Position numbers and translations under genes: made by a program
From: Ruminococcus sp.
Lineage (GTDB): Bacteria > Bacillota > Clostridia > Oscillospirales > Ruminococcaceae
DNA length: 64,000 bases
NCBI GenBank assembly: GCA_017529875.1
Contig: JAFXNC010000004.1
Span: 1 to 64,000, forward strand
Reading direction: 5' to 3'
Shown here: piece by piece, positions 8,654-58,362 of the stretch
How positions within the stretch are numbered: the first letter of the stretch is position 1
Layout of the letters: every line of letters begins with the position of its first letter
The notes under the pieces: generated by a model
Database searches by the model: none
What the model was told of the DNA's origin: nothing
Seen by the model: only the letters and a program-made list of their open reading frames with translations

Positions 8654-8665
8654 ATATCCTCCCCG

Positions 8666-8700
8666 GATAAAAATACCGGGCAGACGTTTGGGGAGTCTGC
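8666..8700 (-). terminator. rho-independent terminator downstream of surface-protein gene
   Basis: CGGGCAGAC...GTCTGCCCG stem flanked by an A/T run. Confidence 0.6.
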
Positions 8701-8711
8701 CCGTATTGGTC

Positions 8712-9917
8712 TTACTTTTTCTTGACGAATCTCCGTCTGCTGATGTCGTAGGTCTTGTTGCTCTTTCTGCCCAGGATGATGAACACCGCAACGCCCGCGA
8801 TGACCACGCCTGCCACAACGCCTATGATGATGAACACCACATGGCTGCCTATGGAGGAATCTCCCTCGGAGCTTGTGGCTGCGGCAGCGGCAGCGGATGC
8901 TGCTGCGGACTCGGCAGCTGAGGTCATTTCGGAAGCCGACGATGTCTCGGCGGCGGTGGCGGTCTCGGCAGCAGAGCTGTCCTCGGACTTCGATTCTGCG
9001 GGAGGCTCCGGCTCATCTACAGCCAGGGTCTTGCAGTTCATGACGTAGATATCGGTGCAGGTCATGGTGTACTGTCCGGTGTCCCCCACATATACCGTGT
9101 AAACACAGCTGAAATCGTCGGTGCCGTAGGCGTCAACGATAGACTTGTAGTTGAAGTATGCAAAGCTGTTATTGAAGTCCATGGGAGCGACCTTCGCCCA
9201 TACGGTGCCGTTCTTGGCCTTGGGGGAGACTTTATCGTCGGTGCTCTGGAGGATGAACTCCACCGGATCCGAGTAAACGGTGTCGGTGGCATCCAGCTCG
9301 TATCTTACGATAACGTAGGAATCCGGGGTAAGGGTGCTGGTATCGAACCTGTCCACGCCCACCGAAACGCTCTGATGCCAGTCCTTGCTGGGCTTGGCGT
9401 CGGCGGTGTGTACCCAGGTGGCGTGGTATTTGTTGTTCTCAGCCATTTCATTGGCGGAGAGGACGTTGGCGGCCTCAACGCTCTTGCAGGTTATGGGCGA
9501 CGCGCCTGCGGGAACGATCTCCATTGCGAAGACCATATCCGGGGTCACTTCCCCCAGGACCTTGGTGAGATCGTCGTAGGTGTAAACGGCTGTGCCGTCC
9601 TTGTATTCCTTATAGGGGACCTCCGCCATCAGGGGCGCTCCGAAGTCAAAAGCATCGTTGCTCTTTCTGTCCCAGTAATCGAGCATGAGCCTGAAAGGAC
9701 ATTCCTCGCCTTCGCCGCCTTCGCAGGTGACGGTAAGAGTGGAATCTTCGCCGAACTGCGCGAGGGAGAGCTTGTTTGAGTTTACGGTAAAGGAAGTGCC
9801 GTCGGCAGTTTCGACTGCGGATCTTGTATCGACTGTGATATCGGCTGCTGCTGCAGAAAACGCGCTGAGAGCTATTGCAGCCGCAGCTCCAATAAGCATA
9901 GCAAAGGTTTTCTTCAT
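8712..9917 (-). CDS. secreted, cell-surface-anchored protein (signal peptide, globular domain, Ser/Ala/Thr-rich stalk, C-terminal TM anchor)
   Basis: N-terminal signal peptide MKKTFAMLIGAAAAIALSAFSAAAA; low-complexity SAAETATAAETSSASE... linker; C-terminal hydrophobic helix plus basic tail. Confidence 0.6.
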   Translation of the reverse strand: MKKTFAMLIGAAAAIALSAFSAAAADITVDTRSAVETADGTSFTVNSNKLSLAQFGEDSTLTVTCEGGEGEECPFRLMLDYWDRKSNDAFDFGAPLMAEVPYKEYKDGTAVYTYDDLTKVLGEVTPDMVFAMEIVPAGASPITCKSVEAANVLSANEMAENNKYHATWVHTADAKPSKDWHQSVSVGVDRFDTSTLTPDSYVIVRYELDATDTVYSDPVEFILQSTDDKVSPKAKNGTVWAKVAPMDFNNSFAYFNYKSIVDAYGTDDFSCVYTVYVGDTGQYTMTCTDIYVMNCKTLAVDEPEPPAESKSEDSSAAETATAAETSSASEMTSAAESAAASAAAAAATSSEGDSSIGSHVVFIIIGVVAGVVIAGVAVFIILGRKSNKTYDISRRRFVKKK

Positions 9918-28416: not shown

Positions 28417-29106
28417 GTGAGAAACAACATCCTTATCGTAGACGACGATGAAGACCTGACCTTTGTGATAACCGATATGCTGGAGAGCTACGGCTACTGC
28501 GTCACCTCTGCGGCCAGTGCCGAGGAGGCCTTCGCCATACTTGGGGACAGAGTATTCGACCTGATACTGCTGGATATCAACCTGCCCGACTCCACCGGCT
28601 TTGAGATCTGCCGGGAGCTGAGGCGGGTCTCCGACGTGCCGGTGATATTCGCCAGCGCCCGCACCGGCGAGACCGACAGGATAGCGGGCTTCGATATCGG
28701 CGGCGACGACTGCCTGCCGAAGCCCTACTCAATGGCTGAGCTCATCTCCCGGGTCAAGGCGCTGATGCGCCGCGCCTACGGCAGAGAGACCGCCTCCGGC
28801 AGGACAGTCACCTTCGGGGACGTGAGCGTGGATATCGCGGCGCGTTCCGTCACCAGGAAGGGCGCCCCCGTGACCCTCTCACTGAAAGAATTCGACCTGC
28901 TGGCCTGCCTCTGCGAGCACGCAGGCACAGCCCTCCCGAAGGAAAAACTTCTATCGGAGGTGTGGGGAGCCTTCTCGGAGGTGGAGCCCTCCACCCTGAC
29001 GGTGCATATCCGCTGGCTGCGTGAAAAGCTGGAGGACGACCCCGCATCCCCAAAGTACATCAAGACCGTATACAAAGTAGGCTACATACTGGAGGCGGAG
29101 AAATGA
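28417..29106 (+). CDS. OmpR-family response regulator (BceR/VirR-like)
   Basis: REC domain with phospho-Asp (LILLDINLPD) and winged-helix trans_reg_C. Confidence 0.9.
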   Translation: MRNNILIVDDDEDLTFVITDMLESYGYCVTSAASAEEAFAILGDRVFDLILLDINLPDSTGFEICRELRRVSDVPVIFASARTGETDRIAGFDIGGDDCLPKPYSMAELISRVKALMRRAYGRETASGRTVTFGDVSVDIAARSVTRKGAPVTLSLKEFDLLACLCEHAGTALPKEKLLSEVWGAFSEVEPSTLTVHIRWLREKLEDDPASPKYIKTVYKVGYILEAEK

Positions 29107-30248
29107 AAGGCAGACTGGCAGGGATGACCCTGTGCTTTATGGCAGCGTTCATAGTCCTGACGGTGGTGCTGACCCGTATCGGCAGCACCTCCGACCCCGA
29201 TTCCGGAGGACTGAAAGCCGTTGCCCTCAGCGAGATAGAACAGCTGGTGAAACAGGGCGACACCGAGGCCGCCCTCCGGGAGGCGGATAAGCTGCGAGAG
29301 CAGCTCATGCAGGAGGAGGCTCCCGCTGCCAACAACACGGCGGCTGTGCCCCTCTGCGCCGCGGGATGCGTCTTTGCAGCGGCGGTGTTCTGCTACGTCT
29401 ATTTCTCTGTGCTCAGACCCTTTGACAAGCTGAGATTCTTCGCTGCCCGCATAGCCCGGGGGGAGCTGGACGTACCTTTGGAGTACGAGCGTTCAAACTG
29501 GTTCGGGAGCTTTACATGGGCCTTCGACAGTATGCGCCGGGAGATAACCGCCGCCCGCGCCTGCGAGCGTGAGGCCATTGACAACAACAAGACGGTCATA
29601 GCAACTCTCTCCCACGATATCAAGACCCCGGTGTCCTCCATAAGAGCCTACGCAGAGGGGCTCGACGCCAACCTCGATACCTCCCCGGAGCGCCGCCGCA
29701 AGTACCTCTCTGTGATAATGCGCAAGTGCGACGAGGTCTCCCGCCTCACCAACGACCTGTTTTTGCACTCCCTGTCCGATCTGGACAGGCTGGCTGTCCA
29801 CCCGGAGCGGTTCGAGCTCATGTCCTTCATGGAGGGGGCGGTGGAGGAACTCTCCGCAGGGCAGGGGGATGTTGCTTTTATCCGAAACGACCCGGAGGCC
29901 TACATCTCCGCCGACAAAAACCGCCTGATGCAGATGACCGAAAACCTGATAAACAACGCCCGCAAGTACGCCCGCACCGATGTTACCGTCACCGCCTCAA
30001 AAGAAGACGGCTGCGCAGTCCTGCGTTTCACCGACAAAGGAAACGGCATACCCGACGGGGATATGCCGTTCATCTTCGGTAAGTTCTACCGGGGTCACAA
30101 CTGCGGCTCCGAGCCCGGTTCGGGACTGGGTCTGTACATCGTCAGGTACCTGACCGAGGCCCAGGGCGGAGAGGTGAAGCTCCGCAATATCGCCCCCCAC
30201 GGCCTTGAAGTCACAGTCAGCCTGCCCCTTACCAGCCCAGATCCATAA
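29103..30248 (+). CDS. sensor histidine kinase (intramembrane-sensing, BceS-like)
   Basis: 2 TM helices with short loop; H-box HDIKTPVSSIRAY; HATPase_c G-boxes. Confidence 0.85.
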   Translation: MKGRLAGMTLCFMAAFIVLTVVLTRIGSTSDPDSGGLKAVALSEIEQLVKQGDTEAALREADKLREQLMQEEAPAANNTAAVPLCAAGCVFAAAVFCYVYFSVLRPFDKLRFFAARIARGELDVPLEYERSNWFGSFTWAFDSMRREITAARACEREAIDNNKTVIATLSHDIKTPVSSIRAYAEGLDANLDTSPERRRKYLSVIMRKCDEVSRLTNDLFLHSLSDLDRLAVHPERFELMSFMEGAVEELSAGQGDVAFIRNDPEAYISADKNRLMQMTENLINNARKYARTDVTVTASKEDGCAVLRFTDKGNGIPDGDMPFIFGKFYRGHNCGSEPGSGLGLYIVRYLTEAQGGEVKLRNIAPHGLEVTVSLPLTSPDP

Positions 30249-30996
30249 GCCAGTTATTGAGGCTCCTTTCTCTGTCACGCATGGAGGAGGGGCCTTTGTA
30301 TTTGCCCAGGGTGTGCTCGGCCTTGATGTTGCCGTCCACGATGTAGAGTACTCTGTCGCACTTGGCGGCAACGTGGCTGTCATGGGTGACAAGCAGGATC
30401 GTGGTGCCCTCGGCGTTGAGGCGTACCAGCTCGTCGGTGACTTCCTCGGAGGAGGTGCGGTTCAGAGCGCCGGTGGGCTCGTCGGCGAAGATCATAGTCG
30501 GGGAGTTTATCATGCTCCGGGCTATGCAGGCTCTTTGCAGCTGTCCGCCGGAGACCTCGTTGATGTCGTTGTCGGCGATGTCGGAGATGCCCAGCTTCTT
30601 CATCAGCTCCTCGCCCCGGCGCTTCTTGTCGGCGCGGGAGGCGTGATCCTTTTCCGATCTCATAGCCGGCAGGATGATGTTATCCAGCAGCGAGAGGTTC
30701 TTGAGCATATACATCTGCTGAAAGATAAATCCCATTTCATCAAGGCGCAGCTCCGAGAGCTCGTCCTTTTTCAGCTTGGAGATATCTCTGCCCTTGAAGC
30801 TGACGCTGCCGGAGGTCATGCCGTCCATGCCGGAGGCGGTGTAGAGCAGGGTGGACTTGCCTGAACCCGAGGGTCCCATTACCGCGATCATCTCCCCGGC
30901 GGCCACCGAGAAGCTCACGTTTTTGAGCACGTTGTTCTGTCTTTTGTTTATGATATAGGTCTTGCAGAGATCCTTTACTTCGAGAATGGTTTCCAT
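30229..30996 (-). CDS. ABC transporter ATP-binding protein (MacB/BceA-like)
   Basis: Walker A GPSGSGKST, signature SGGQLQR, Walker B IFADEPTGALN. Confidence 0.9.
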   Translation of the reverse strand: METILEVKDLCKTYIINKRQNNVLKNVSFSVAAGEMIAVMGPSGSGKSTLLYTASGMDGMTSGSVSFKGRDISKLKKDELSELRLDEMGFIFQQMYMLKNLSLLDNIILPAMRSEKDHASRADKKRRGEELMKKLGISDIADNDINEVSGGQLQRACIARSMINSPTMIFADEPTGALNRTSSEEVTDELVRLNAEGTTILLVTHDSHVAAKCDRVLYIVDGNIKAEHTLGKYKGPSSMRDRERSLNNWLMDLGW

Positions 30997-31031
30997 AATG
31001 CTTTCCTCCGTTTATCTGTTTTAGGGGACTG

Positions 31032-33398
31032 TTATTCTATGTTAGCCGCGTCGGACGCCTTGACCGACCTGGTGTAGAGAGCCGTGAAAAATGCTCCCGC
31101 GATGACTGCCGCCAGTATTATTGCAGGGTAGACGCCGAATATCTCGGGGACGTTCAGCTCATAGCCTATGCCCTCGGAGGCGCCCATCATCCCGAAGATC
31201 GGGTCAGCTACCAGCTTGGTCAGCGGCAGGCAGAGGGCTGCGGAGAGTATCCCCGAGACCGCCGCCACCACCACGAACCGGAAGGTGTGCTGCTTGACGA
31301 TCAGCTTATCCTTGATGCCGAGAGCCTTCATCAGCGCGATCTCGGATTTCTCTTTTGCTATGAAGGAGCGCTCCATGAGCACCACGATCATTATGATTAT
31401 CAGCACCGAGATGATGAGCACCAGGTTCTTGACAGCCGCGATAGCGTCGGCGGAGTTGGTGGATTCCTTGACGAACTCGTTTGCGTTCTGAACCTTGTCG
31501 GTGCCCCAGTGCTTTTTGAGCTGCTCCTTGCGCTCTTCAATGGTCTTGGCGTCGGGGTGATCGTCAAAATCTATCTGCGCCGGGAATGTGGTGCCGGGGG
31601 TCACGTCACCGAGAGGCACATCCTGATGCAGCCTGATGACCTGTCCCAGCTGGTTCATGCTCTGGAACACCGCCGTCAGCTGGTACTCTTTGGTCTCGCC
31701 GTTTACGGTGATCTTGACCTTGTCGCCGATGTCGAAGCCGAACTTCTCGCAGATCAGGGTGGTGGCGGCAAACTCGGTCTCGCACTGAGGCGCCGTGCCC
31801 CGCTCGTATACATACTCGGAGCAGTCGGTCTCGGCGCTCCAGAGAGCCGTGATGTTCTGCCTGGTATCACCGAACTCCACCGGCACCTTGTACTGTGCCT
31901 CGATATGCACCTTTGCAGGCATACCCAGGCCGGCAAGCTCCTGCTCGATGCCGGAGCAGTGCTCCTTTATCGTAGTTACGCCGCCCAAAAGATCCATAGC
32001 GTCCTTGGCAGTGTAGTAGAGGTCGCTCTTGGTGTTGCCCAGCAGGAACAGCATCTTGTCGCTGCCGCCGAGGGTATTTGCGATGTTTGCGAACACCATC
32101 ACCAGCAGCAGGCAGAGGGCGAATACCACCGTCATTATGCTGTACTGCTTGGGGGCGGACACCACGTCGTTGACCGCAAGAAAGCCTGTTGCCGGGAGCC
32201 TGGTCTTGCCCAGGTTCATGAAGCTGCGTTTCTTGAACCGCTCGCCGGTCTGACCGTTCCTTACTGCGTCTATGGGGGAGAGTTTCTTGATCCTGCGGGT
32301 GCAGCCCCAGCAGAAGAGCATTATTATGCCCACAACCGCGATGCTGCTGAGAGCGCCGATGAGCACGGTGCTGTCGTTGCCCAGGTACATGGACTTGGAG
32401 GCGGATTCAAGCAGCAGCGCCCCGAAGGGTATGCTCGCGAAGTAGCCTATCACCGCACCGATCACCGCTATGCCAAGATACTTGGCAAGGTAGAGGCTCC
32501 TGATATGCCTGTTCTTGATGCCTATGGCCTTCATAACGCCGATCTCGCGGAATTCCTCGGCGATCGTAAAGCCTATGGTGAACCGCAGCATCACGAACGA
32601 GATAAGGATCAGCGCTATGGACACGATGAGCAGGCTGCCTGCCGTGATGATCTCTAAAACGTAGGTCATCTTTATCACGCTGTGAGCGCCGTCAAAGGCT
32701 ATGTTTGTGTCTTCCGTTACCGCTTCTTCAACGGCCTTGGTGTCGTCGGTGTCCACATAGAACACGCTGCCGCGATAGCCTGCTGCCGAGGGGTCGCCGA
32801 AGAACCTGGCGTAGTCGTTTGCGTTGAGCAGTACTCTGCCGCTGCCCATGAAGTCGGAGCCCAGCAGAGCGTCCTTGATCCTGCCCTTGTATTCAAGGGA
32901 GAGGGTGGTGCCGCCCAGGGTGAAATCCAGCTTGTCGCCCACCTTGATGCCGGAGTTTTCGGGAGCGGAGCCCGACATATAGAACCCGCCCTCGGGCACC
33001 TCGGTCAGGGGATCGTTGTCCTTGTCGAAGTAGTTTATCTTTGCTTCGTCCACCGACAGGAGCAGGATAGAGGAGTTGGAGAACTCCAAGGCCTTTTTGC
33101 CGTCCCGCGTGATCTTCTCGGCGTTGGTGTAGAGCACGCTCTCACGCCTGAACCTGTTTACTGCGGGCTCGGCTTCCAGCTTTGCGGAGAGGGTGTCGCC
33201 GTTCTTGCCGTCGATGGTGATGAAGTAGTAATCCGCCATGCCTGCCTGCTCGAAGAAGTAATCGGTGCCGCCGACTATGGTGATTATGTTGTTGACGCTG
33301 GAGGACGCGAACATCGCCGACAGTATCACGAACAGCAGCAGGATGATGTTCATGGTCTTCTTGCGCCTGATATCCTTTTTGAGTATCCGTAAAAACAT
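31032..33398 (-). CDS. ABC transporter permease with two FtsX domains (BceB-like)
   Basis: 788 aa; two 4-TM FtsX bundles, each preceded by a large extracytoplasmic domain. Confidence 0.85.
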   Translation of the reverse strand: MFLRILKKDIRRKKTMNIILLLFVILSAMFASSSVNNIITIVGGTDYFFEQAGMADYYFITIDGKNGDTLSAKLEAEPAVNRFRRESVLYTNAEKITRDGKKALEFSNSSILLLSVDEAKINYFDKDNDPLTEVPEGGFYMSGSAPENSGIKVGDKLDFTLGGTTLSLEYKGRIKDALLGSDFMGSGRVLLNANDYARFFGDPSAAGYRGSVFYVDTDDTKAVEEAVTEDTNIAFDGAHSVIKMTYVLEIITAGSLLIVSIALILISFVMLRFTIGFTIAEEFREIGVMKAIGIKNRHIRSLYLAKYLGIAVIGAVIGYFASIPFGALLLESASKSMYLGNDSTVLIGALSSIAVVGIIMLFCWGCTRRIKKLSPIDAVRNGQTGERFKKRSFMNLGKTRLPATGFLAVNDVVSAPKQYSIMTVVFALCLLLVMVFANIANTLGGSDKMLFLLGNTKSDLYYTAKDAMDLLGGVTTIKEHCSGIEQELAGLGMPAKVHIEAQYKVPVEFGDTRQNITALWSAETDCSEYVYERGTAPQCETEFAATTLICEKFGFDIGDKVKITVNGETKEYQLTAVFQSMNQLGQVIRLHQDVPLGDVTPGTTFPAQIDFDDHPDAKTIEERKEQLKKHWGTDKVQNANEFVKESTNSADAIAAVKNLVLIISVLIIIMIVVLMERSFIAKEKSEIALMKALGIKDKLIVKQHTFRFVVVAAVSGILSAALCLPLTKLVADPIFGMMGASEGIGYELNVPEIFGVYPAIILAAVIAGAFFTALYTRSVKASDAANIE

Positions 33399-34232: not shown

Positions 34233-34415
34233 GAATAACAGACAGGGTACGCGGTACTATTCACTGACGCCTCTCACTTATATCCGGAAAAGGGCAAAAA
34301 GTTGCACGCGAACGTGCAACCGACAAGTCAGATGACCGGGCTGTAACAGCTCAACAGGGTAAAAAATTACTCACTTAGCCTGAATATACAATAATTGTGC
34401 ATTGAAAAAGGAGGA

Positions 34416-35060
34416 ATGACCGTGACCAGGAAAGAAAAAGCCCTCGCAGTCTGCGACAGGCTGGAGGAAAAATACCCCGACGCCATATGCTCCCTTACAT
34501 ATGATAAGCCCCATGAGCTGATGATCGCCGGAAGGCTCTCGGCGCAGTGCACCGACGAGCGGGTCAATATCGTCACCAAAGAGCTTTTTGCCAAGTACCG
34601 CTCCATCGACGACTTCGCCGCCGCCGACGTCAGGGATATCGAGGAGATAATACGTCCCTGCGGCCTCTACAAGACCAAGGCTCAGTCCCTGGTGGGGATG
34701 TGCAAGGCCATAAACGAGCGCTTCGGCGGGCAGATACCCGATACCATAGAAGAGCTCACCACCCTCCCGGGCATAGGCCGCAAGACCGCCAACCTCATCA
34801 TCGGGGACGTCTTCGGCAAGCCCGCCGTCGTCACCGACACCCACTGCATACGCATCACGGGAAGGCTGGGTCTGACATCCAACACCGACCCCGTGAAAGT
34901 TGAGACAGATCTGCGAAAGATACTCCCCCCGGAGCGTTCCGGCGACCTGTGCCACAGGCTGGTGCTTTTCGGCAGGGAGGTCTGCAAAGCCCGGGGCGAG
35001 CGGTGCGATGCCTGCCCCCTTCAAGACCTGTGTTCTGCCTATAAAAAGAAGAAGTCCTGA
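34416..35060 (+). CDS. nth: endonuclease III (DNA-(apurinic or apyrimidinic site) lyase)
   Basis: HhH-GPD motif LPGIGRKTANLI and 4Fe-4S C-x6-C-x2-C-x5-C cluster; start ATG 34416 or GTG 34422. Confidence 0.9.
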   Translation: MTVTRKEKALAVCDRLEEKYPDAICSLTYDKPHELMIAGRLSAQCTDERVNIVTKELFAKYRSIDDFAAADVRDIEEIIRPCGLYKTKAQSLVGMCKAINERFGGQIPDTIEELTTLPGIGRKTANLIIGDVFGKPAVVTDTHCIRITGRLGLTSNTDPVKVETDLRKILPPERSGDLCHRLVLFGREVCKARGERCDACPLQDLCSAYKKKKS

Positions 35061-35155
35061 CAGGGAAAAATTGTCATTTCGTATTGACACTTCGGACATA
35101 ATCTGCTAAAATATAATTGAGAAATTATAGACTTGCATCTGCTGAGGTGAAGTGT

Positions 35156-38100
35156 ATGAAAAACAAGCATAACTATCTCATGGCGGTGTTCATCGCCGTA
35201 TGCATAATGATAAACTACGGCGGCAGGGTGTTCGCCGGACACTTTGAGCTGCCCCTGTGGCTGGACACCATAGGCACGGCGGTGACTTCCTTTGCCTTCG
35301 GCCCTGTCTGCGGCGCTATTGTGGGCGTCACCAGCAATATCATCTTCGGCATCGTGGATGCAGGCGCTTATGAGTACTGCATTGTGAGCATCGTGCTGGG
35401 CATCGTCATAGGTATGTCCGCCAAGCGGGGATCCTTCAAGACCGTTTTCGGCACCATGACCGCCAGCGTCCTTGCCACCGTGGCGGCTATCGTGGTGTGC
35501 GTGCCCATAAACCTCATCTTCCACAACGGCATGACCAGCAACATCTGGGGCGACGGCGTCATAAAGATGCTGGAGGAAAAGGACGTCCCCTTCTGGCTCT
35601 GCGTGGTGGCGGGAGAGTTCTATGTGGAGTTCCTCGACAAGATCATAACGCTCTTTGCGCTGTATCTGGTGGCGAGGTTCCATGAGCGCAATACCGCCCG
35701 GCAAGGGGCTGAGACCCCCTCCGACAGCGATACCGGCGATACTGACGACAGCTCCGGCGATGATACAGCCGACGCCCCGGATGATACAGGCTCCGGCTCG
35801 GGTCCGGGAAAGGCTGCAAAGCTTGCCGCCATGCTCATCTGCGGCATGACAGCGGCTGTGACCGCCGGCGGTCTCAGGGCTGACGCCGCCGACAAGTACT
35901 ACGATTACAGCGACTACGTCCATACCGTTTTCAGCAGCGACAACGGCCTGCCCTGCGGCGAGGCCAACGACGTGGCTCAGACCAATGACGGCGTGCTGTG
36001 GATAGGCACCTATGCGGGTCTGTACCGCTACAACGGCAGCGAGTTCAGGTGGATGAACGAGTATTCCTCGGTGCGAAACGTCAACTGCCTCTATGTTGAC
36101 GCCGAAGGCCGCCTGTGGATAGGCACCAACGACAACGGTCTCACCATAAGCATCAACGAGACCGTCTCAAACGTGGTGGACAAGGACACCGGGCTGCCCT
36201 CCGATTCTATCAAGTGCGTGACCCAGAGCTCTGAGGGCGACTACTACATCGGCACCACCGAGAGCATGGCTATCATAACCCTGGACAGCGGCCTTAAAGT
36301 CCTCAACGAGATACCCATACACTATGCCGTCACCGCCACCGCCGACGAGGACGGTCATGCCGCCGTGGTCAACTCCGAGGGAAAGCTTTTCCTGCTGGGC
36401 GACCGGGAGATCAGAGACACCTTGGAGCCCTCCGGCGACAGCGAGGTCTTCAACTGCGCCACCTTCTCCGATGACGGTCTGCTCTACGCCGGCACCACCG
36501 GCAGCAGGGTCTTCGTCTATGAGATCAAGGATGGCAAGCTCTCCCAGCTGAGGGAGCTCAGCTTTGATTCCCTGGTGAGCATACAGTCCATAACCTTCTC
36601 CGAGGATGGGCTGTGCTTCATCTGCGCCGACAACGGCGTGGGCTTCATCGGCCCCGACGGAGTATACCACGACATCAACACCGGGGACTTCAACAACTCC
36701 ATAGACAACATGACCATAGACTATCAGGGCAACCTGTGGTTCACCTCGTCGAGACTGGGACTGCTCAGGCTCAGCGAGACCCCCTTTGCCGATGTGTACC
36801 GCATCTGCGGGCTTGAAAACAAGGTAGTCAACACCGTGGAGGAATGGAACGGCAAGCTCTATTTCGGCACGGACGCCGGCCTGGATATCGCCGACAAGAA
36901 CACCAGAAAGCCTGTGACAAACGACCTCACCAAAAAGCTTGAGGGCTCCCGCATACGCTGCATCAGGAAGGACTCCCGGGGCAACCTGTGGATCTGCACC
37001 TACGGCATGGGTCTGGTGAAGGTCAAGCCCGACGGCTCCACCGAGGATTTCGGCACCGCCGAGGGCACCTTCGGCAACCGGGCAAGAGTGGTCATCGAGC
37101 TCTCAGACGGCAGGATAGCCGCCGCAGGCGATACCGGCATGAGCTTCATCACCGAGAGCGGCATCGAAAAGACCCTGACCTACGGCAGCGGGCTTTCAAA
37201 CACCATGATACTGAGCCTGCTTGAACACTCCGACGGCGCTCTGCTGGCAGGCACCGACGGCGACGGCATCGCGGTCATCAGGGACGGCTCGGTGGTCAGG
37301 ATGCTGACCCGCTACGACGGCCTTTCCTCGGGAGTTATCCTGCGAATGGTGGCCTGCTCCGACGGCGAGCATATCCTTATCGTCACCAGCAACGGCCTGT
37401 GCTGCATGGACAGCTCCTACAACATCAGGACCCTCGACGAGTTCCCCTACTCCAACAACTACGACGCCTGGACCGGCCCCTCCGGAAAGCTCTTCGTCAT
37501 GAGCAGCGCCGGCATCTATGTGGCTGACGAGAAGGACGTCATAAACGACACCCCGGATATGTACTACGAGCTGCTGGACTCCAAAAGGGGCATGACAGCC
37601 TCACTGACTGCCAATTCCTGGAACTACTGCGACGAGGACAATATGCTTTACCTCTCCTGCGACAGCGGCGTGTACAGCATGGATATGGACACCTACGCCT
37701 CCAAGAAGCACACCTACCGTCTGCTGGTGTCCTCCGCCAAGATAGACGGCGTGGTATACCCGGTGGAGCGGGGCGTTGAGCTGAGCATCCCCCGTGGCAC
37801 CGGCAGGATAGAGATATTCCCGGAGGTCATCAACTACACCACCGAGAACCCCTACGTAAGCTACTACCTGGAGGGCTTCGACACCGCTCCCACAGTCATC
37901 AATCAGAGCGAGCTGTCCTCCATAGTGTATACCAACCTCCCCAAGGGCAGCTATGTGTTCCGCCTCTCTGTGCTGGACAACAGCAAGGAGGGCGTGCTGG
38001 AGGAAAGCTCCTACACCATCACCAAGGAGCGGGAGATCTACGACAACGGCTGGTTCACCGCCTATATGCTCATCGTTGCCATGCTGGCGATCATCTGGTT

Positions 38101-38791
38101 CACCTGGTTCCTGGCAAGGACCCGCATACAGCGCACCCTGACTATCCAGCGCCAACAGCTGGAGCTTGCAGAAAAGCAGGTACGCATGGGCAACGAGACG
38201 ATCCTCGCCATAGCCCGTACCGTGGACGCCAAGGACGAGAACACCAGCCAGCACTCGCAGCGTGTCTCCGAGTACTCCGTGATGATAGCTCAGGAGCTGG
38301 GCTTCAGCAAGGAGGAGCAGGAAAAGCTGAGAAACGCCGCATTGCTTCATGACATAGGCAAGATCGGCATACCCGACCGCATACTCAACAAGCCCGCCCG
38401 CCTCACCGACGAGGAGTACGCCATAATGAAGACCCACGTTACCAGAGGCGCCAAGATACTCAAAGACTTCACCCTCATAGAGAACGTGGTGGACGGCGCT
38501 CTCTATCACCATGAGCGCTACGACGGCAAGGGCTACGTCCACGGCCTCAAGGGCGAGGACATACCTCTCTACGGCAGGATCATCGGCGTAGCGGACGCCT
38601 TCGACGCCATGACCGCCAACCGTGTTTACAGAAAGAAACTGGATTTCAACTTCGTCATCGAGGAGCTGGAGCGGTGCAAGGGCAGCCAGTTCGACCCGAA
38701 GATCGCCGACATCATGCTCAAACTGATTCACGAGGGCAAGATAGACTTTGAACGCCTGTACGGAAGCGAGGTGCCGAAGAATGACGAGTGA
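35156..38791 (+). CDS. multidomain membrane sensor: ECF-S-component-like polytopic N-domain + beta-propeller (Reg_prop repeats) + Y_Y_Y domain + TM + HD-GYP c-di-GMP phosphodiesterase domain
   Basis: 1212 aa from ATG 35156 (GAGGTGA RBS). N-terminal 170 aa hydrophobic with ELPLWLDTIGTAV motif; Asp/Ser/Gly-rich linker; repeated GxLWIGTxxGL propeller blades; Y_Y_Y; TM WFTAYMLIVAMLAIIWFTWFLA; HD...HDIGKIGIPD...HHERYDGKGY (HD-GYP). Confidence 0.8.
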   Translation: MKNKHNYLMAVFIAVCIMINYGGRVFAGHFELPLWLDTIGTAVTSFAFGPVCGAIVGVTSNIIFGIVDAGAYEYCIVSIVLGIVIGMSAKRGSFKTVFGTMTASVLATVAAIVVCVPINLIFHNGMTSNIWGDGVIKMLEEKDVPFWLCVVAGEFYVEFLDKIITLFALYLVARFHERNTARQGAETPSDSDTGDTDDSSGDDTADAPDDTGSGSGPGKAAKLAAMLICGMTAAVTAGGLRADAADKYYDYSDYVHTVFSSDNGLPCGEANDVAQTNDGVLWIGTYAGLYRYNGSEFRWMNEYSSVRNVNCLYVDAEGRLWIGTNDNGLTISINETVSNVVDKDTGLPSDSIKCVTQSSEGDYYIGTTESMAIITLDSGLKVLNEIPIHYAVTATADEDGHAAVVNSEGKLFLLGDREIRDTLEPSGDSEVFNCATFSDDGLLYAGTTGSRVFVYEIKDGKLSQLRELSFDSLVSIQSITFSEDGLCFICADNGVGFIGPDGVYHDINTGDFNNSIDNMTIDYQGNLWFTSSRLGLLRLSETPFADVYRICGLENKVVNTVEEWNGKLYFGTDAGLDIADKNTRKPVTNDLTKKLEGSRIRCIRKDSRGNLWICTYGMGLVKVKPDGSTEDFGTAEGTFGNRARVVIELSDGRIAAAGDTGMSFITESGIEKTLTYGSGLSNTMILSLLEHSDGALLAGTDGDGIAVIRDGSVVRMLTRYDGLSSGVILRMVACSDGEHILIVTSNGLCCMDSSYNIRTLDEFPYSNNYDAWTGPSGKLFVMSSAGIYVADEKDVINDTPDMYYELLDSKRGMTASLTANSWNYCDEDNMLYLSCDSGVYSMDMDTYASKKHTYRLLVSSAKIDGVVYPVERGVELSIPRGTGRIEIFPEVINYTTENPYVSYYLEGFDTAPTVINQSELSSIVYTNLPKGSYVFRLSVLDNSKEGVLEESSYTITKEREIYDNGWFTAYMLIVAMLAIIWFTWFLARTRIQRTLTIQRQQLELAEKQVRMGNETILAIARTVDAKDENTSQHSQRVSEYSVMIAQELGFSKEEQEKLRNAALLHDIGKIGIPDRILNKPARLTDEEYAIMKTHVTRGAKILKDFTLIENVVDGALYHHERYDGKGYVHGLKGEDIPLYGRIIGVADAFDAMTANRVYRKKLDFNFVIEELERCKGSQFDPKIADIMLKLIHEGKIDFERLYGSEVPKNDE

Positions 38792-40010
38792 GGCTAAAAG
38801 AGATCTGATCGTGACAGCGGTCGCCTCGCTGATCGTTATCATGATGTTTTCCATATTCCATCTGGTGAAGCTGATAAACGATTCCTCCAAGGAGCAGATC
38901 AAGGTGGGCTTCGTTTACGACAGCGACGAGAGCACCCCCTACACCGCCAATTTCATCAAGGCGCAGAAGGCTCTTGAACGTCAGCTGGGCAGCAAGGTGG
39001 TAACGGTGGTCAAGTCCAACATCTACGACAGGGACGGCGGCAAAAAGGCCGTCAGCGAGCTGGTCAACGAGGGCTGCGACCTCATCTTCACCACCAGTAT
39101 AGGTTACAGCAAGGCCGCCAAGGAATATGCCGAGCAGTACCCGGACATACAGTTCTGCCAGGCCACCGGCGACAATGCCGGCACCGAGCCGGTGCTGGAC
39201 AATTATCATACCTTCATGGGCGAGATCTATCAGGGCAGATACATCTCAGGCGCCATAGCCGGCATGAAGCTGCGAGAGCTCATCGACAGCGGCAGGATCT
39301 CCCCTGACAAGGCCAGGATCGGCTATGTGGCAGCCTACGAGACGGCTGAGGTCATCTCGGGATATACGGCCTTCCTGCTTGGCGTCAGGTCTGAGGCGCC
39401 CGAGGCGGTCATGGAGGTCATGTACACCAACACCTGGTCGAGCTACGCCGTGGAGAAGAAGTGCGCCAAGCAGCTCATCGCCGACGGCTGCGTCGTGATC
39501 TCACAGCACTCCGATACCACAGGCCCTGCGGTGGCCTGCGAGGAAGCCCAGAACGTCTACCATGTGGGCTACAACCAGAGCATGATCGACGTGGCGCCCA
39601 CCACCTCCATAATAAGCTCCTGCATCAACTGGACCCCCTACATAGTCAGCGCCAGCGAGGCAGTCCTTGCGGGAAAGCGCATCGAGGACTATGTACAGGG
39701 CGACGAGAACGGCAACGACCTGGGAGCGGGCTTTGACCTGGACTGGGTACAGATGCTGGAGCTCAACTCTCTCATAGCCGCCGAGGGCAGCGCCGACAAG
39801 ATCACGGAGCTCACCGACAAGTTCAAGGACGGCTGGAACGAGGTCTTCAAGGGCAGCTACACCGGTGTTGACCCCACCGATCCCAACAAGACCATAGACC
39901 TGAGCGGAGGCTACACCGAGAACGAGCACTCATCCGCGCCGACCTTCTGCTACGTCCTGAATGACGTCATCACCATAGTCGAACAAGAAACGGATGCGCG
40001 GATTCGCTAA
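38781..40010 (+). CDS. BMP/PnrA/Med family ABC-type substrate-binding protein homologue, membrane-anchored
   Basis: Start ATG 38781 overlaps the HD-GYP gene stop by 11 nt; N-terminal TM; BMP-family periplasmic-binding fold. Confidence 0.75.
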   Translation: MTSEAKRDLIVTAVASLIVIMMFSIFHLVKLINDSSKEQIKVGFVYDSDESTPYTANFIKAQKALERQLGSKVVTVVKSNIYDRDGGKKAVSELVNEGCDLIFTTSIGYSKAAKEYAEQYPDIQFCQATGDNAGTEPVLDNYHTFMGEIYQGRYISGAIAGMKLRELIDSGRISPDKARIGYVAAYETAEVISGYTAFLLGVRSEAPEAVMEVMYTNTWSSYAVEKKCAKQLIADGCVVISQHSDTTGPAVACEEAQNVYHVGYNQSMIDVAPTTSIISSCINWTPYIVSASEAVLAGKRIEDYVQGDENGNDLGAGFDLDWVQMLELNSLIAAEGSADKITELTDKFKDGWNEVFKGSYTGVDPTDPNKTIDLSGGYTENEHSSAPTFCYVLNDVITIVEQETDARIR

Positions 40011-40047: not shown

Positions 40048-40110
40048 TAAGGAGTCCGCTTTGCGGACGATTTTAAAAATCATCGCCGAAGGCGATACCT
40101 TAATTATTCT
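40048..40110. terminator. bidirectional terminators (GTCCGCtttGCGGAC and ATCGCCgaaGGCGAT) embedded in an approximately 35-bp AT-rich inverted repeat
   Basis: Arms gaaagaataaagaa...aataattaagg / ccttaattattctttattctt around two short GC hairpins. Confidence 0.65.
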
Positions 40111-55343: not shown

Positions 55344-56600
55344 ATGAGCGAATTTGAAATGCTGGTTAGTGAACACCGTGGTGCGGTCGAGCGGTATGTG
55401 CGGTTCAATATTCCGACTAAGGCTGACAGCGATGACGTTTTGCAGGAGGTATGGCTGGCGGCATACAGACAGTTTGACAAACTGCTGAACAAAAGCAGCT
55501 TTAAGGCTTGGGTCATAGGGATAGCCCGTCACAAGGTCAAGGACTATTTCCGCAGCAGGCGTGATACGCTCGGCATTGATGAACTGCCCGAGAGCGAGCT
55601 TGTTCAAAGCCGTTACGGACTTGTGGAGTATTTGCCTGTTCACGAGACTATAGAGTGTCTGAACGAAAATGATAAGCAGATACTCAGGCTTTACTACTTT
55701 GAGAATATGCCGCAGAACGAGATAGCGGACAGGCTCGGCATACCGCTCGGAACGGTCAAAAGCCGCTTGAACACCGCAAGACGCAATTTCAAAAACGCAT
55801 ACCCATATCCGCCGAAAGGAGAAGATACTATGTTTAAGCTACCGAAAACTATGCCCGAATACAAGATCATTCCCAGCGACAAAGAGCCATTTGCGGTCAA
55901 GTGGGAGGAGCTTATGGGCTGGTTTATCGTCCCGAAGATAGGTGAAAAGCTGACTTGGGCTATCTACGACCAGCCGTCCCGCAAGGGTGATTATTTCTAC
56001 GAAATGGAGGTCATCGGCAAGGCAGAGATACACGGCGTAGAGGGCGTTGAAATAATCGCTAAAGAGGGCAATTTTGATAAGACACAGCCCTGCACCGAAC
56101 GCAGATTTGTGGCACAGCTTACCGATACACATTGCCGTTATCTTGCCGAAAGCCATGTTGTGAACGGCGTAAGGAAGCTGTACACCTTCCTTGACGGTGA
56201 CGCATTCCTGCCTAACTGGGGCTACGGCGAGGACAACTGCGGAAATGAAATAATTATTTCGCCAAAGGGGATAATCGTTAAAAAGGGCAACGAAATAACT
56301 GTAAATAGTGAGAAAGCTCCGCTTGACATAGTCGGCAGATACACAGTTGAGATAAATGGCAAGACCTATGATGCCGTTTGTGTTATTGATGTCGGGACAT
56401 ATAATGAAGGTGTCCTCAGCGAGCAGTTTCTTGACAAGAACGGCAGAACGATCTTATGGCGCAGGTTCAACCGCAACGATTGGGAGTTTGACCGCTACGG
56501 CAAGCTGTGGACAGAGGCTCTGCCCGACAATGAGAGACTTTCAGTCAACGGTGAGACGTATGTGCATTGGTATGATTGTGTGAGTGATTATATTTTTTAA
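55344..56600 (+). CDS. ECF-type sigma-70 family factor (regions 2 and 4) fused to an approximately 250-aa beta-rich C-terminal domain
   Basis: Sigma-70 r2 (VLQEVWLAAYRQFDK) and r4 (MPQNEIADRLGIPLGTVKSRL); no TM segment; no separate anti-sigma gene. Confidence 0.7.
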   Translation: MSEFEMLVSEHRGAVERYVRFNIPTKADSDDVLQEVWLAAYRQFDKLLNKSSFKAWVIGIARHKVKDYFRSRRDTLGIDELPESELVQSRYGLVEYLPVHETIECLNENDKQILRLYYFENMPQNEIADRLGIPLGTVKSRLNTARRNFKNAYPYPPKGEDTMFKLPKTMPEYKIIPSDKEPFAVKWEELMGWFIVPKIGEKLTWAIYDQPSRKGDYFYEMEVIGKAEIHGVEGVEIIAKEGNFDKTQPCTERRFVAQLTDTHCRYLAESHVVNGVRKLYTFLDGDAFLPNWGYGEDNCGNEIIISPKGIIVKKGNEITVNSEKAPLDIVGRYTVEINGKTYDAVCVIDVGTYNEGVLSEQFLDKNGRTILWRRFNRNDWEFDRYGKLWTEALPDNERLSVNGETYVHWYDCVSDYIF

Positions 56601-56736: not shown

Positions 56737-58362
56737 ATGAATAAGAATGAATTAACAGAATATGCCGATCTGCTTCTGCAAGCGGCTGTGCGAAAATGTG
56801 ATAACCTCGCTGATGCACAGGATCTGGTTCAGGAAACTCTGCTTATTGCATTGATAGCTATCGAGAACGGTAAGGAAATAGCCGAGCCTAAAAACTGGCT
56901 GATGACGGTTCTGAACCGCAAGTATTACGATATGCTGAGGGAGAAATACCGCAAGCCTACCGTCTGCATTGACGTTGTCGGGGAAATAGCCGATGAGAGC
57001 AGCATTGATGATAATTCGGACGATGCGGAAAATATCCGCCGCTGCCTTGCAAATCTTACCAAAATTTACCGTGAGGTAATGGTGCAGCACTATATGAACG
57101 GCAGGAGCGTTGCCGAGATAGCGCAGAGCCTTGGTATACCCGAAAACACCGTCAAGAATCGTTTGTTTACAGGCAGAAAGCATATTCGGAAGGAGTTTGC
57201 TATGGAGAATTATACTAAGCAGAGCTATGAACCTGATGATCTTTGGATAGCCAGTACGGGTCAGACAGGTATTGATGATGAGCCGTGGAAGCTGGTCGGT
57301 CAAGATCGTATCGCTATGAATCTGCTGATACTCGCCTACGAGCAGCCCGTCACACTGACTGAGCTTTCAAAGGCGATAGGCATTTCGACTACATATATTG
57401 AGCCGATAGTAGAACGGCTTGTGGATGGTGAACTGATGAAAAAGGTATCAGATAAGGTTTATACTGATTTCATCATTCACACCGAGGATGAAAGACTTGC
57501 TTCGCTTGATCTGCAATTAAGTCTTGCAAAAGAGCTATGCTCCGAGATATGGGAGATTGTTGACGAAGGGCTTGCCGAGCTGTTCCAGCGTGATTATTAC
57601 AAGTCTAAAACCAAAGAACAGGCTATCAAACTGGAGAGCTTTTTAGTGTTCAGGACACTTCTTCACGCTGTCAATGGAGTGCGTGATGAAGTCAGCGGCG
57701 GAAGAGAACCCTTTGAGAGCTATCCCGACAGACCAAACGGCGGCAAGTGGTATGCTATGGGTTCACTGTATCCTCACGGATATGATTACGATCATTGCCC
57801 CTACAGCCGCTATCAGTTTAGCGGTGAAAGTGTCAACAATATGAAAAATGTGATCGGAGCAAAAGCTCTGTCCCTGTGTCTGTATGACACAGATGCTTCT
57901 GTTCTCGGCACTACCTATAAAGAATATTTTTATATTGACTCGTTCTCGAAGCTGATATATTCAATATATCTCGGTCAGACCGATATGCTTGAAATGCTTG
58001 ACAAAAAGCTGCTTGAAAATATAGGCACGATGATAGAACAGAATACTCTGCTCCGTGATGATGAGGGTAAATTGCAGGTCAATATCCCAGTTATCTCCAT
58101 GCAGGACAGATGGGATATTTACGAGCTGAGCGAGAAGTACGACAATATAATTTCCGAGAGGTTTCATGACAGATTTATGGAACTTATGAAAAATCCCGTA
58201 AAGCTGCCGAAGCATTTGAAATCCGTTCCTGATTGGCTGCGTTATATGGACTGCTGCAGCTATTTCCCCTCGGCTGTTATACTTGAAGCAAGGGAGAAAG
58301 GGCTGTTTTTGAAAGGCTATGACAGACCTGCGCCTGCTGTTATGCTTTGTGTGGAAAAGTGA
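56737..58362 (+). CDS. ECF-type sigma-70 family factor fused to an approximately 370-aa C-terminal extension containing a second HTH-like segment
   Basis: Sigma r2/r4 (RSVAEIAQSLGIPENTVKNRL) followed by a winged-helix-like VTLTELSKAIGISTTYIEPIVERL and a large alpha/beta region. Confidence 0.7.
   Translation: MNKNELTEYADLLLQAAVRKCDNLADAQDLVQETLLIALIAIENGKEIAEPKNWLMTVLNRKYYDMLREKYRKPTVCIDVVGEIADESSIDDNSDDAENIRRCLANLTKIYREVMVQHYMNGRSVAEIAQSLGIPENTVKNRLFTGRKHIRKEFAMENYTKQSYEPDDLWIASTGQTGIDDEPWKLVGQDRIAMNLLILAYEQPVTLTELSKAIGISTTYIEPIVERLVDGELMKKVSDKVYTDFIIHTEDERLASLDLQLSLAKELCSEIWEIVDEGLAELFQRDYYKSKTKEQAIKLESFLVFRTLLHAVNGVRDEVSGGREPFESYPDRPNGGKWYAMGSLYPHGYDYDHCPYSRYQFSGESVNNMKNVIGAKALSLCLYDTDASVLGTTYKEYFYIDSFSKLIYSIYLGQTDMLEMLDKKLLENIGTMIEQNTLLRDDEGKLQVNIPVISMQDRWDIYELSEKYDNIISERFHDRFMELMKNPVKLPKHLKSVPDWLRYMDCCSYFPSAVILEAREKGLFLKGYDRPAPAVMLCVEK

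Follow-up and report, generated by a model that had tools for sequence, protein, structure and literature searches.

A conserved gene pair in Ruminococcus sp. encoding an HD-GYP membrane sensor and a membrane-anchored BMP-family protein, a candidate binding-protein-dependent c-di-GMP phosphodiesterase

Organization of the locus

The window analyzed here is a 64,000-nucleotide stretch of DNA from a gut Ruminococcus sp. Inspection of its sequence placed two open reading frames, gene A and gene B, at the positions given in an earlier note on this DNA, together with the following features.

35156 to 38791, plus strand: gene A, a 1211-aa membrane sensor with a predicted HD-GYP phosphodiesterase domain (open reading frame; Pfam and NCBIfam matches)
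38781 to 40010, plus strand: gene B, a 409-aa TM-anchored BMP-family binding protein (Pfam Bmp and PDB matches)
38781 to 38791, plus strand: overlap of the gene A stop and the gene B start, 11 nt, ATGACGAGTGA, with GAGGTG 7 nt 5' of the gene B ATG
35084 to 35112, plus strand: promoter-like site, TTGACA-17-TAAAAT with a TG extension, 44 nt 5' of the gene A start codon
40081 to 40097, no strand assigned (pattern match, called on the minus strand): GC-rich hairpin in the interval that separates gene B from the convergent ispF

Gene A starts with ATG at 35156, is preceded by GAGGTG 6 nt 5' of this codon, and ends with TGA at 38791. The 11-nt overlap with gene B described in the earlier note was confirmed in the sequence, and an overlap or short gap between the two genes is kept in relatives. 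The promoter-like site matches the consensus at 11 of 12 positions, the best score in the scanned region, and is recognized by this consensus match only. The hairpin downstream of gene B is a possible bidirectional terminator.

No BMP-type ABC genes and no EcfA or EcfT genes were found within ∼10 kb of the pair, in agreement with the earlier claim that gene B lacks an adjacent ABC permease or ATPase. The sole ABC system within this distance, a MacB/FtsX module, is accompanied by a two-component system of its own. Both exact proteins are already public with a Ruminococcus sp. metagenome-assembled genome as their source (database protein P0001 is 100% identical to the gene A product), where they carry only the names "HD domain-containing protein" (gene A) and "BMP family ABC transporter substrate-binding protein" (gene B). 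A search of the literature found no description of the combination of an S-module, a propeller, an HD-GYP domain, and a Bmp protein.

Gene A joins an HTCS-type propeller sensor to an HD-GYP output

Pfam and NCBIfam scans bore out the layout proposed for the gene A product, which consists, in order, of a six-helix ECF S-component-like module, a linker, TM7, an HTCS-type propeller region with Y_Y_Y, TM8, and HD-GYP.

35156 to 35710, plus strand: S-component-like six-helix membrane module, residues 1-185
35681 to 35809, plus strand: acidic low-complexity cytoplasmic linker, residues 176-218, of variable length in the family (H6 to propeller, 32-72 aa in relatives)
35810 to 35887, plus strand: TM7, residues 219-244, signal-peptide-like with an AxA-type end (…GGLRADA/ADKYYDY)
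35903 to 38020, plus strand: extracytoplasmic Reg_prop propeller region (residues ∼250-890) and Y_Y_Y (residues 894-955)
38051 to 38116, plus strand: TM8, residues 966-987 (hydropathy peak 964-991), joining the extracytoplasmic domain to HD-GYP
38216 to 38704, plus strand: HD-GYP domain, residues 1021-1183 (Pfam HD_5, E 1.1e-40)

Both extracytoplasmic families were detected above their Pfam thresholds (Reg_prop, E 2e-24, 83 bits versus a cut-off of 20.4; Y_Y_Y, E 3.8e-07, 30.3 bits versus a gathering score of 26.6), and the propeller region matched the solved sensor domains of hybrid two-component systems (HTCS) 3V9F (E 1.6e-25), 4A2L (E 8.6e-19), and 3OTT (E 4.4e-08). In gene A, as in HTCS-type sensors, this region is flanked by two transmembrane segments, TM7 and TM8, and its Reg_prop and Y_Y_Y domains are homologous to those that lie between two TMs in the Bacteroides proteins (BT4663, PDB 4A2L/4A2M; 3V9F; 3OTT). 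The Bacteroides HTCS carry kinase, receiver, and AraC domains in one chain, and their known ligands are glycan fragments. Unlike them, gene A comes from a Gram-positive host and has an added S-fold module, a Bmp partner, and an HD-GYP domain in place of the hybrid kinase-receiver-AraC output; HisKA-HATPase-REC-Hpt outputs are found in sister proteins.

The HD-GYP domain retains its metal ligands

The closest solved relative of the gene A output domain is the c-di-GMP phosphodiesterase PmGH (4MCW, E 2.9e-45), and the alignment to this structure places seven of the eight PmGH metal ligands in gene A (H1033, H1065, D1066, H1094, H1118, H1119, and D1147). PA4781 (4R8Z, E 5.9e-26) is also homologous, with the HD and HHE..D..GY residues kept, whereas the GAF-like or REC inputs of PmGH and PA4781 are unrelated to those of gene A. 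All His and Asp ligands of the binuclear site are kept and are invariant in 78 relatives, so the domain is not the degenerate receptor that the earlier note had allowed for. The residue that is missing is the third-metal Glu: PmGH E185 aligns with N1029, and relatives carry N, R, Y, or S at this position, never E, which points to a predicted site of the binuclear type. The signature of gene A reads HHERYDGKGYV, versus HHExxDGxGYP, with the G and Y invariant and the final position variable in the 78 relatives (V in 28, P in 20, M in 12, A in 6, and N in 4).

Given the third-metal Asn and the variable Pro of the GYP motif, the domain may depart from model HD-GYP enzymes in its substrate and kinetics. 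A stronger form of this idea, that the substrate is not c-di-GMP but another cyclic dinucleotide such as 3'3'-cGAMP, or chiefly pGpG, would draw on these same two features, the missing Glu being shared with the binuclear PA4781 class, and on the rank of the cGAMP-specific V-cGAP3 (5Z7C, E 1.4e-42) as second among the solved relatives. We consider it quite unlikely, as the closest solved match is a c-di-GMP phosphodiesterase and sister cassettes with GGDEF outputs place the sensor family in c-di-GMP signaling.

Gene B encodes a membrane-anchored protein with a predicted purine pocket

The identification of gene B as a BMP-family protein with a TM anchor instead of a lipobox was upheld by its match to Pfam Bmp (PF02608, E 2.7e-27, 96 bits versus a cut-off of 24.1) and by its N-terminal sequence, which has a TM segment at residues 9-29, no lipobox, and a binding domain that begins at ∼residue 36. 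A TM-like N terminus is present in all 120 gene B orthologues, one of which shows a lipobox pattern.

The closest solved relatives of gene B are the adenine-bound Brucella protein 3S99 (E 1.7e-33) and AtzT (PDB 6PI5, E 3.4e-27), a guanine-binding member of the BMP family (PMC6834077). The predicted pocket (Y54, S106, R153, E190, G194, W219, H243, and D245), whose residues are 95-100% conserved in the 120 orthologues, shares with these proteins the fold, the aromatic sandwich (Y54/W219), S106, and E190, and H243 and D245 are exactly as in adenine-bound 3S99. On the basis of this likeness, the ligand of gene B is likely a purine base, as in the 3S99/AtzT subgroup, rather than a PnrA-type nucleoside, an assignment that rests on ∼35% identity to 3S99 and AtzT. 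Unlike 3S99 and AtzT, which are lipoproteins or periplasmic parts of transporters, gene B has a TM anchor, is ∼50 aa longer, lacks a nearby ABC partner, and is locked to a signaling gene.

The sensor and Bmp genes are a conserved pair

Conservation of the gene pair was assessed in dereplicated clusters of proteins that combine the S-module with HD-GYP. A Bmp gene lies directly 3' of the sensor gene in 35 of 36 assessable clusters, usually overlapping it or separated by <170 nt. These 35 clusters, which include two isolate genomes, have unrelated neighborhoods with differing flanks. One locus, L004, has a full sensor with no Bmp gene within 5 kb downstream. The combination of an S-like module, propeller, and HD-GYP, which had been called unusual, is not rare; Clostridia of the rumen and gut contain a large family of such proteins.

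The S-module and propeller together are a reusable input cassette: they occur with GGDEF and hybrid-kinase outputs as well, and at one locus (L083) they are split into two genes. The presence of Bmp follows the input clade and not the output type, since Bmp was found in 36 of 37 assessable clusters with a propeller identity of at least 43% and in none of 12 at 39% or below; the 36 positive clusters are a single clade and not independent events, with an independent output context only at L172 (n = 1). At that locus, the gene order is a REC-HD-GYP regulator, an S-propeller hybrid kinase, and a Bmp gene (53% identical) joined by an ATGA overlap. Four cassettes with kinase or GGDEF outputs (L088, L089, L170, and L171) have the S-module but no Bmp; therefore, Bmp is not an obligatory partner of the S-module.

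These data bear on whether gene B could be an ordinary binding protein of a purine or nucleoside ABC importer encoded elsewhere, co-transcribed with the sensor for co-regulation and making no contact with it. Its Pfam and NCBI family names refer to such a role, its intact predicted pocket is what a working binding protein would have, and orphan binding-protein genes exist. We nevertheless regard this explanation as unlikely because of the position of the gene directly behind the sensor, often overlapping it, in so many unrelated neighborhoods, the TM anchor in place of a lipobox in 119 of 120 orthologues, the occurrence of Bmp behind a kinase-output version of the same cassette at L172, and the lack of any conserved ABC ATPase in 32 dereplicated loci (423 kb). 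Pair conservation, the anchors, the absence of a conserved ABC partner, and the conserved pocket instead support the earlier suggestion that Bmp is a predicted co-sensor and not part of a transporter.

The N-terminal module resembles ECF S-components

The N terminus of gene A, which has an S-component fold with six helices, matches the NCBIfam family ECF_S_CD3073 (NF045596) over the full profile (E 1.3e-18, positions 2-166 of 174); the alternative of a generic sensor domain unrelated to ECF-S, named in the earlier note, is not borne out. The score of this match (67 bits versus a cut-off of 180) is below membership, as are those of the S-like modules for Pfam ECF_trnsprt (PF12822; 20.5-25.6 bits, gathering score 30.7). 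The homology to ECF S-components is significant, yet under the Pfam and NCBIfam thresholds.

In 74 S-like modules, P33, W35, D37, Y74, N129, W131, G132, D133, D161, and K162, on the extracellular face, are invariant or nearly so; six of them (W35, D37, Y74, N129, W131, and D133) map to three extracellular loops (L1, L3, and L5) or to the top of H6. The AxxxA motif of helix 1, which docks EcfT, is not conserved in either register among the same modules: in register 9/13, 54 of the 74 modules carry Ile at position 9 and position 13 is Val or Ile, and in register 10/14, position 10 is Ser, Ile, or Ala and position 14 is Ile or Ala. As a family, the modules have lost the docking motif and kept an invariant aromatic- and acid-rich extracellular face.

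An S-component fold that serves as a signaling input and has lost AxxxA is also a property of the 5TMR-LYT receptors BtsS, YpdA, and LytS (Partipilo & Slotboom 2024, PMC11109136), and PF07694 (5TMR-LYT) is matched by 9 of 23 S-like modules. The gene A module is nevertheless nearer in sequence and fold to true S-components (PF12822, NF045596). It lacks the extra N-terminal helix H0 of 5TMR-LYT, as helix 1 begins at residues 2-8 with no space before it, and it lacks their NXR motif, the loop being GHFELPLWLD (family motif LPxWxD). In 5TMR-LYT, the cytoplasmic output follows directly after H6, whereas in gene A a linker, TM7, a ∼700-aa extracytoplasmic sensor, and TM8 precede it. The treatment of 5TMR-LYT in PMC11109136 does not mention HD-GYP domains, propellers, or binding-protein partners.

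The nearness to true S-components raises the prospect that the module is a working S-component, or transceptor, that imports a micronutrient with a shared EcfAA'T while the phosphodiesterase reports flux. The protein in the window does have A10-x3-A14 in helix 1, and group II S-components are usually unlinked to the ECF module. We judge this reading very unlikely: AxxxA is unconserved at the family level, no Ecf genes were found in the scanned region of the window or at any locus examined, and toppling is improbable for a module tethered to a ∼1000-aa partner by a linker that can be as short as ∼6 residues, as in L085.

It is somewhat less improbable, although still doubtful, that the module has no ligand of its own and serves as a scaffold, dimerization, or assembly module, with sensing left to the propeller and Bmp. 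The invariant residues sit in L1, L3, L5, and the top of H6, where S-components bind substrates (PMC11109136), which argues against a purely structural role, although a docking surface would look alike.

A model for the gene pair

Considering these results together, gene A and gene B probably encode a c-di-GMP phosphodiesterase that depends on a binding protein and has a composite input, of the same kind as the NspS-MbaA polyamine sensor of Vibrio cholerae. The two genes would form one operon. The gene A product spans the membrane with eight helices, and its intact catalytic residues suggest that the cytoplasmic HD-GYP domain hydrolyzes c-di-GMP. One predicted input is the extracytoplasmic double-propeller/Y_Y_Y domain of the Bacteroides HTCS type, coupled to the enzyme via TM8, and the other is the N-terminal six-helix module, which may be a Bmp-independent second input or a regulatory partner of the propeller sensor. 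Gene B, tethered to the membrane with an adenine/guanine-type pocket and no transporter partner, would bind an extracellular purine-like ligand, and the loaded protein would dock on the extracytoplasmic or membrane input of the sensor and switch phosphodiesterase activity, as NspS does for MbaA.

NspS is homologous to transporter-type binding proteins but has no role in transport; it docks on the membrane c-di-GMP enzyme MbaA, whose activity is set by the ligand occupancy of NspS, and the two genes overlap (PMC8967002). A binder gene tied to that of a membrane c-di-GMP enzyme, with no transporter, is likewise what was found in the 35 paired clusters. The two systems differ in that NspS, encoded upstream, binds polyamines as a soluble periplasmic protein of the PotD type, whereas gene B is TM-anchored, of the BMP/purine type, and encoded downstream; and in that MbaA is a GGDEF-EAL protein with a small periplasmic domain, whereas gene A has HD-GYP, a double propeller, and an S-fold module.

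Membrane-attached, transporter-independent binders that are needed by or complexed with a sensor kinase also occur in Med-KinD of Bacillus subtilis and XylFII-LytS of Clostridium beijerinckii, the latter complex being PDB 5XSD. Med is a BMP-family lipoprotein of unknown ligand and XylFII is a sugar binder. Their outputs are histidine kinases, and neither sensor has a propeller or S-fold module, unlike gene A.

A more elaborate arrangement, in which the S-like module is the membrane receptor for ligand-loaded Bmp, by ligand handover or docking, and the sensor combines a glycan signal read by the propeller with a purine signal read by Bmp and the S-module, is speculative, and we think it improbable. 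If it were true, two separate substrate-capture strategies of ABC importers would have been combined and repurposed for signaling.

To our knowledge, few of the signals that control HD-GYP phosphodiesterases have been identified, and work on c-di-GMP signaling in Clostridia of the gut and rumen is scarce. The gene pair supplies a concrete candidate input for an HD-GYP enzyme, a putative purine-type binding protein with a conserved pocket, and the paired sensor and Bmp sequences are a large natural set for co-evolution analysis. It also extends the 2024 transceptor idea to an S-fold module that is near real transporter subunits, is combined with a second, extracytoplasmic sensor, and is used with phosphodiesterase, cyclase, and kinase outputs. 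If purines from digested plant or microbial biomass control c-di-GMP in fiber-degrading Ruminococcus and Lachnospiraceae, decisions on adhesion or motility would be tied to nutrient status in a community of economic and medical relevance.

The assignment of TM7 is based on a hydropathy peak at residues 220-240 and on comparison within the family. In the split-gene relative L083, the propeller gene opens with a canonical signal peptide, and it is a possibility that signal peptidase cuts the gene A product after TM7 to yield two polypeptides, like those of this relative.

Gene organization and domain anatomy of the sensor and its Bmp partner

The earlier note's observation on the two genes was accurate in its open reading frames and coordinates, and the start of gene B does overlap the stop of gene A by 11 nt (ATGACGAGTGA). 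Gene A encodes a large membrane sensor, and gene B encodes a membrane-anchored binding protein of the BMP family (Bmp). The features of this region are as follows.

Features of the gene A–gene B region (window positions)
35084-35112, upstream of gene A: strong promoter-like site found by pattern match, TTGACA-17-TAAAAT with TG extension
35156 (ATG)-38791 (TGA), + strand: gene A, 1211 aa; GAGGTG 6 nt 5' of the ATG
35810-35887: TM7 of gene A, with an n-h-c signal-peptide layout and an AxA-type end (…GGLRADA/ADKYYDY) just 5' of the propeller
38781 (ATG)-40010, + strand: gene B, 409 aa; GAGGTG 7 nt 5' of the ATG
40081-40097: GC-rich hairpin preceding the convergent ispF

Because a promoter-like site precedes the two genes and a hairpin follows them, they look like a self-contained operon. 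Both proteins are already present in public databases at 100% identity (Ruminococcus sp. MAG, 266-kb contig), where they are named "HD domain-containing protein" (gene A) and "BMP family ABC transporter substrate-binding protein" (gene B).

A Pfam domain scan of gene A bore out the proposed architecture of a propeller, a Y_Y_Y domain and an HD-GYP output, with matches to Reg_prop (E 2e-24), Y_Y_Y (residues 894-955, above the gathering score) and HD_5 (residues 1021-1183, E 1.1e-40). Among solved structures, the extracytoplasmic domain is homologous to the periplasmic sensors of hybrid two-component systems from Bacteroides (3V9F, E 1.6e-25; BT4663 4A2L, E 8.6e-19). Hydropathy analysis identified eight helices, of which six fall within residues 7-173 and the other two are at 220-240 and 964-991. 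Based on the lysine-rich N-terminal residues and the positive cytoplasmic loops, the predicted topology begins with the S-like module, whose two ends are both cytoplasmic. An acidic linker then connects to TM7, which leads outward to an extracytoplasmic domain of ∼700 aa, and TM8 leads back inward to a cytoplasmic HD-GYP domain.

The signal-peptide layout of TM7 is common to relatives of gene A (e.g. …TRPAYA/AEEDEDL in locus L085). TM7 thus resembles an internal signal peptide, and we speculate that the gene A protein may be cut after it into two chains, as in the split genes of locus L083 described below; such cleavage, if true, would separate the S-like module from the remainder of the polypeptide.

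The N-terminal module of gene A has the ECF S-component fold

The earlier note had likened the N terminus of gene A to ECF S-components, and sequence alignment, modeling and Foldseek searches all identify it as a real S-component-fold domain. The match to Pfam ECF_trnsprt at residues 8-169 is sub-threshold, and the N terminus covers the whole NCBIfam profile of the CD3073 family of putative ECF S-components (E 1.3e-18). Along its full length the module can be aligned with standalone ECF-S proteins, with which it has the motifs LP..LD..GT, GP..GA..G and DK in common. Among 23 family members, matches were found to PF12822 (19/23), PF07694 (5TM-5TMR_LYT, 9/23) and PF07155 (5/23). When an AlphaFold2 model of the module (mean pLDDT 91.9) was compared with solved structures, as had been suggested, the best six Foldseek PDB matches were all S-components.

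S-components dock on EcfT through an AxxxA motif in helix 1. Across 74 S-like modules the helix-1 AxxxA motif is not conserved, and the residues that are invariant or nearly so (P33, W35, D37, Y74, N129, W131, G132, D133, D161, and K162) are placed in the extracellular loops and at the outer end of H6, the region in which S-components hold their substrates. Such an outer face would suit docking by a protein as well as a pocket for a small molecule. Cassettes (S-like module plus propeller) that lack a Bmp gene keep the same residues, so the module cannot depend on Bmp.

The HD-GYP domain keeps its binuclear-site ligands, and the Bmp pocket is conserved

Aligned to the phosphodiesterase PmGH (4MCW, E 2.9e-45), the HD-GYP domain of gene A has a complete rather than degenerate set of metal-binding His and Asp residues: the PmGH ligands are matched by H1033, H1065/D1066, H1094, H1118/H1119, and D1147, all invariant in 78 family domains. 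Also invariant in these domains are K1069, E1120, D1123, G1126, Y1127, and D1150. Where PmGH has its third-metal Glu, gene A has N1029, and Glu is found there in none of the 78 domains. The Pro position of GYP varies among V, P, M, A, and N, with GYV in the window. The domain is thus predicted to be catalytically complete for a binuclear site.

The assignment of gene B to the BMP family stands (Pfam Bmp, E 2.7e-27), and its proposed likeness to PnrA does not, as the closest solved relatives are instead Brucella 3S99 (E 1.7e-33), a structure deposited as an adenine complex, and AtzT (E 3.4e-27). For AtzT, binding has been reported at 110 nM for guanine and at 2.5 µM for adenine (PMC6834077). 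When the AtzT pocket was mapped onto 120 gene B orthologues, the aromatic sandwich of Y54 and W219 was found to be conserved together with S106 and E190; N218 and N220 of AtzT are replaced by H243 and D245, identical to 3S99. Conservation of these six gene B residues, and of R153 and G194, is 95-100% across the orthologues. A hydrophobic N-terminal segment is present in 120/120 orthologues and a lipobox-like pattern in 1/120, in agreement with a TM anchor in place of a lipobox.

The sensor–Bmp gene pair is conserved across genomes

Sensors were collected from species-representative genomes and metagenomic contigs and dereplicated at 90%, which gave 53 clusters. Conservation of the gene pair was confirmed: Bmp lies directly 3' of the S-module plus HD-GYP sensor in 35 of the 36 assessable clusters, a count that represents one clade of Bmp-positive clusters and not 35 independent events.

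Presence of Bmp directly downstream of the sensor, in clusters (Bmp present; without Bmp; not assessable)
S-module + HD-GYP: 35; 1 (L004); 2
S-module + kinase: 1; 2; 0
S-module + GGDEF: 0; 2; 0
HD-GYP paralogues without S-module: 0; 7; 1
Outside the table: L158 (frameshifted sensor, Bmp 592 nt downstream) and L010 (N terminus cut by contig end)

The same two genes occur together in L001 and L002, which were fetched from the sensor side, and in the isolate genomes L085 and L087, fetched from the Bmp side; in all four the gene ends overlap or nearly abut, and the neighborhoods are wholly different. The hosts are Clostridia of the rumen and gut, among them Ruminococcus and Lachnospiraceae, and some of the sequences come from human-gut assemblies. 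The earlier note's remark that Bmp lacks an adjacent ABC partner was also borne out, as no conserved ABC ATPase was present in 32 Bmp-positive loci (423 kb).

Identity to the window sensor is about 31-34% for the HD-GYP paralogues without an S-module. A divergent S-like gene hidden beside them was considered and rejected, because a profile search of all open reading frames in L010-L020 found none.

L004 (4992-8564) holds the only complete S-module–propeller–HD-GYP sensor for which no Bmp gene lies within 5 kb downstream; the next gene is instead an aldo/keto-reductase-like one on the opposite strand, and the Bmp gene may have been lost or relocated. In L001, an SBP_bac_3 (amino-acid-type) binding-protein gene (5053-5964) ends 37 nt upstream of the sensor, with Bmp also downstream, and its product may serve that organism as a further co-sensor.

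The module–propeller cassette is used with several outputs, and Bmp follows the input

A module profile searched against 1.84 billion representative proteins gave 193 matches at E ≤ 1e-30, in several length classes. A propeller was present in 14 of the 16 long S-module proteins examined. The outputs of these 14 were hybrid histidine kinase in six (HisKA-HATPase-REC, with or without Hpt), GGDEF in two and HD-GYP-REC in one; in the other five, which are shorter, no output domain was detected. The remaining two of the 16 were P0382, a probable mis-joined gene call, and P0289, a 374-aa protein with the S-like module only. A metagenome scan with the narrow module alignment A3 recovered close HD-GYP-type relatives only and no other outputs.

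L083 (4174-7996) contains a split sensor made up of two genes joined by a TAATG stop–start overlap. The first is a 193-aa S-like gene, and the second encodes a signal peptide, a propeller, Y_Y_Y, a TM helix and then a histidine-kinase H-box that starts at the contig end. The recurrence of the cassette with several outputs, together with this split form, shows that the S-like module is a partner of the propeller sensor whatever the output. Directly upstream of the split sensor are a PnuC-like NMN_transporter gene and an MCP gene. At L171, the S-module–propeller–GGDEF gene is followed after about 570 nt by a gene (6713-8752) for a 5TM-5TMR_LYT-HAMP-SpoIIE protein, which places two different S-fold receptors at one locus.

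Strict co-occurrence of Bmp with the S-module was rejected, as Bmp is absent behind the kinase cassettes of L088 and L170 and the GGDEF cassettes of L089 and L171. Where propeller identity to the window is ≥43%, Bmp is present in 36 of 37 assessable clusters (frameshifted L158 excluded); at ≤39% it is present in 0 of 12. Bmp therefore tracks the input-domain clade and not the output, the cross-output evidence being a single locus, L172, where a hybrid kinase is followed by a Bmp gene (53% identical, ATGA overlap) and has a propeller 44% identical to that of the window, equal to the most distant HD-GYP members. That Bmp follows the input argues that it acts on the sensing side. In both L170 (73-6328) and L172 (308-7586), the gene directly upstream of the S-module–propeller hybrid kinase encodes a REC-HD-GYP response regulator, so that the same signal-to-phosphodiesterase logic takes the form of a phosphorelay.

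Proposed mechanism and precedents

From family knowledge, we infer that the HD-GYP domain would hydrolyze c-di-GMP and that Bmp would bind a purine base or a close analogue. Gene-order conservation and precedent suggest that ligand-bound Bmp may dock on the sensor's input, whether extracytoplasmic or in the membrane, and, once docked, could switch the enzyme through TM8 in the fashion of NspS-MbaA. BT4663 is a precedent for the propeller/Y_Y_Y sensor, and Med-KinD for a BMP-family co-factor of a kinase. NspS-MbaA is a binding-protein-dependent c-di-GMP enzyme (PMC8967002). The 5TMR-LYT domains are S-fold receptor domains (PMC11109136), whose hallmarks H0, NXR and direct cytoplasmic output are all absent from the module described here; that paper mentions neither HD-GYP domains, propellers nor binding-protein partners. 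The PcrK/PcrR cytokinin system, an analogy in leading from a purine derivative to a phosphodiesterase, was rejected as a close relative, since it uses a CHASE domain and no binding protein.

Our literature search returned nothing relevant on HD-GYP domains with an ECF S-component or with a propeller/Y_Y_Y sensor, and no paper on the architecture. Each principle has a precedent, and the combination is undescribed in the papers found. The architecture is common in nature, unannotated and readily testable.

Other features of the window

The genes flanking the operon are unrelated to the pair. Downstream are ispF and a GalE-like epimerase gene. Upstream, at 28417-33398, an OmpR-type response regulator and histidine kinase (+) adjoin a MacB/FtsX-type ABC ATPase and a 787-aa permease (-). 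Modules that sense and detoxify peptide antibiotics typically have this layout, which has no relation to the Bmp gene. Two operon-adjoining open reading frames are without a Pfam match, and a low-GC island that is probably an integrated mobile element lies farther downstream.

Minor features (window positions)
34371-35099, - strand: open reading frame, 241 aa
41682-43028, - strand: open reading frame, 447 aa
54600-62200: low-GC island, GC 0.45-0.48 versus about 0.57 elsewhere
55344-56600 and 56737-58362, within the island: two long sigma-70 region2/region4 fusion proteins
60556-62172, within the island: large serine recombinase (Resolvase + Recombinase + Zn_ribbon_recom + DUF4368)
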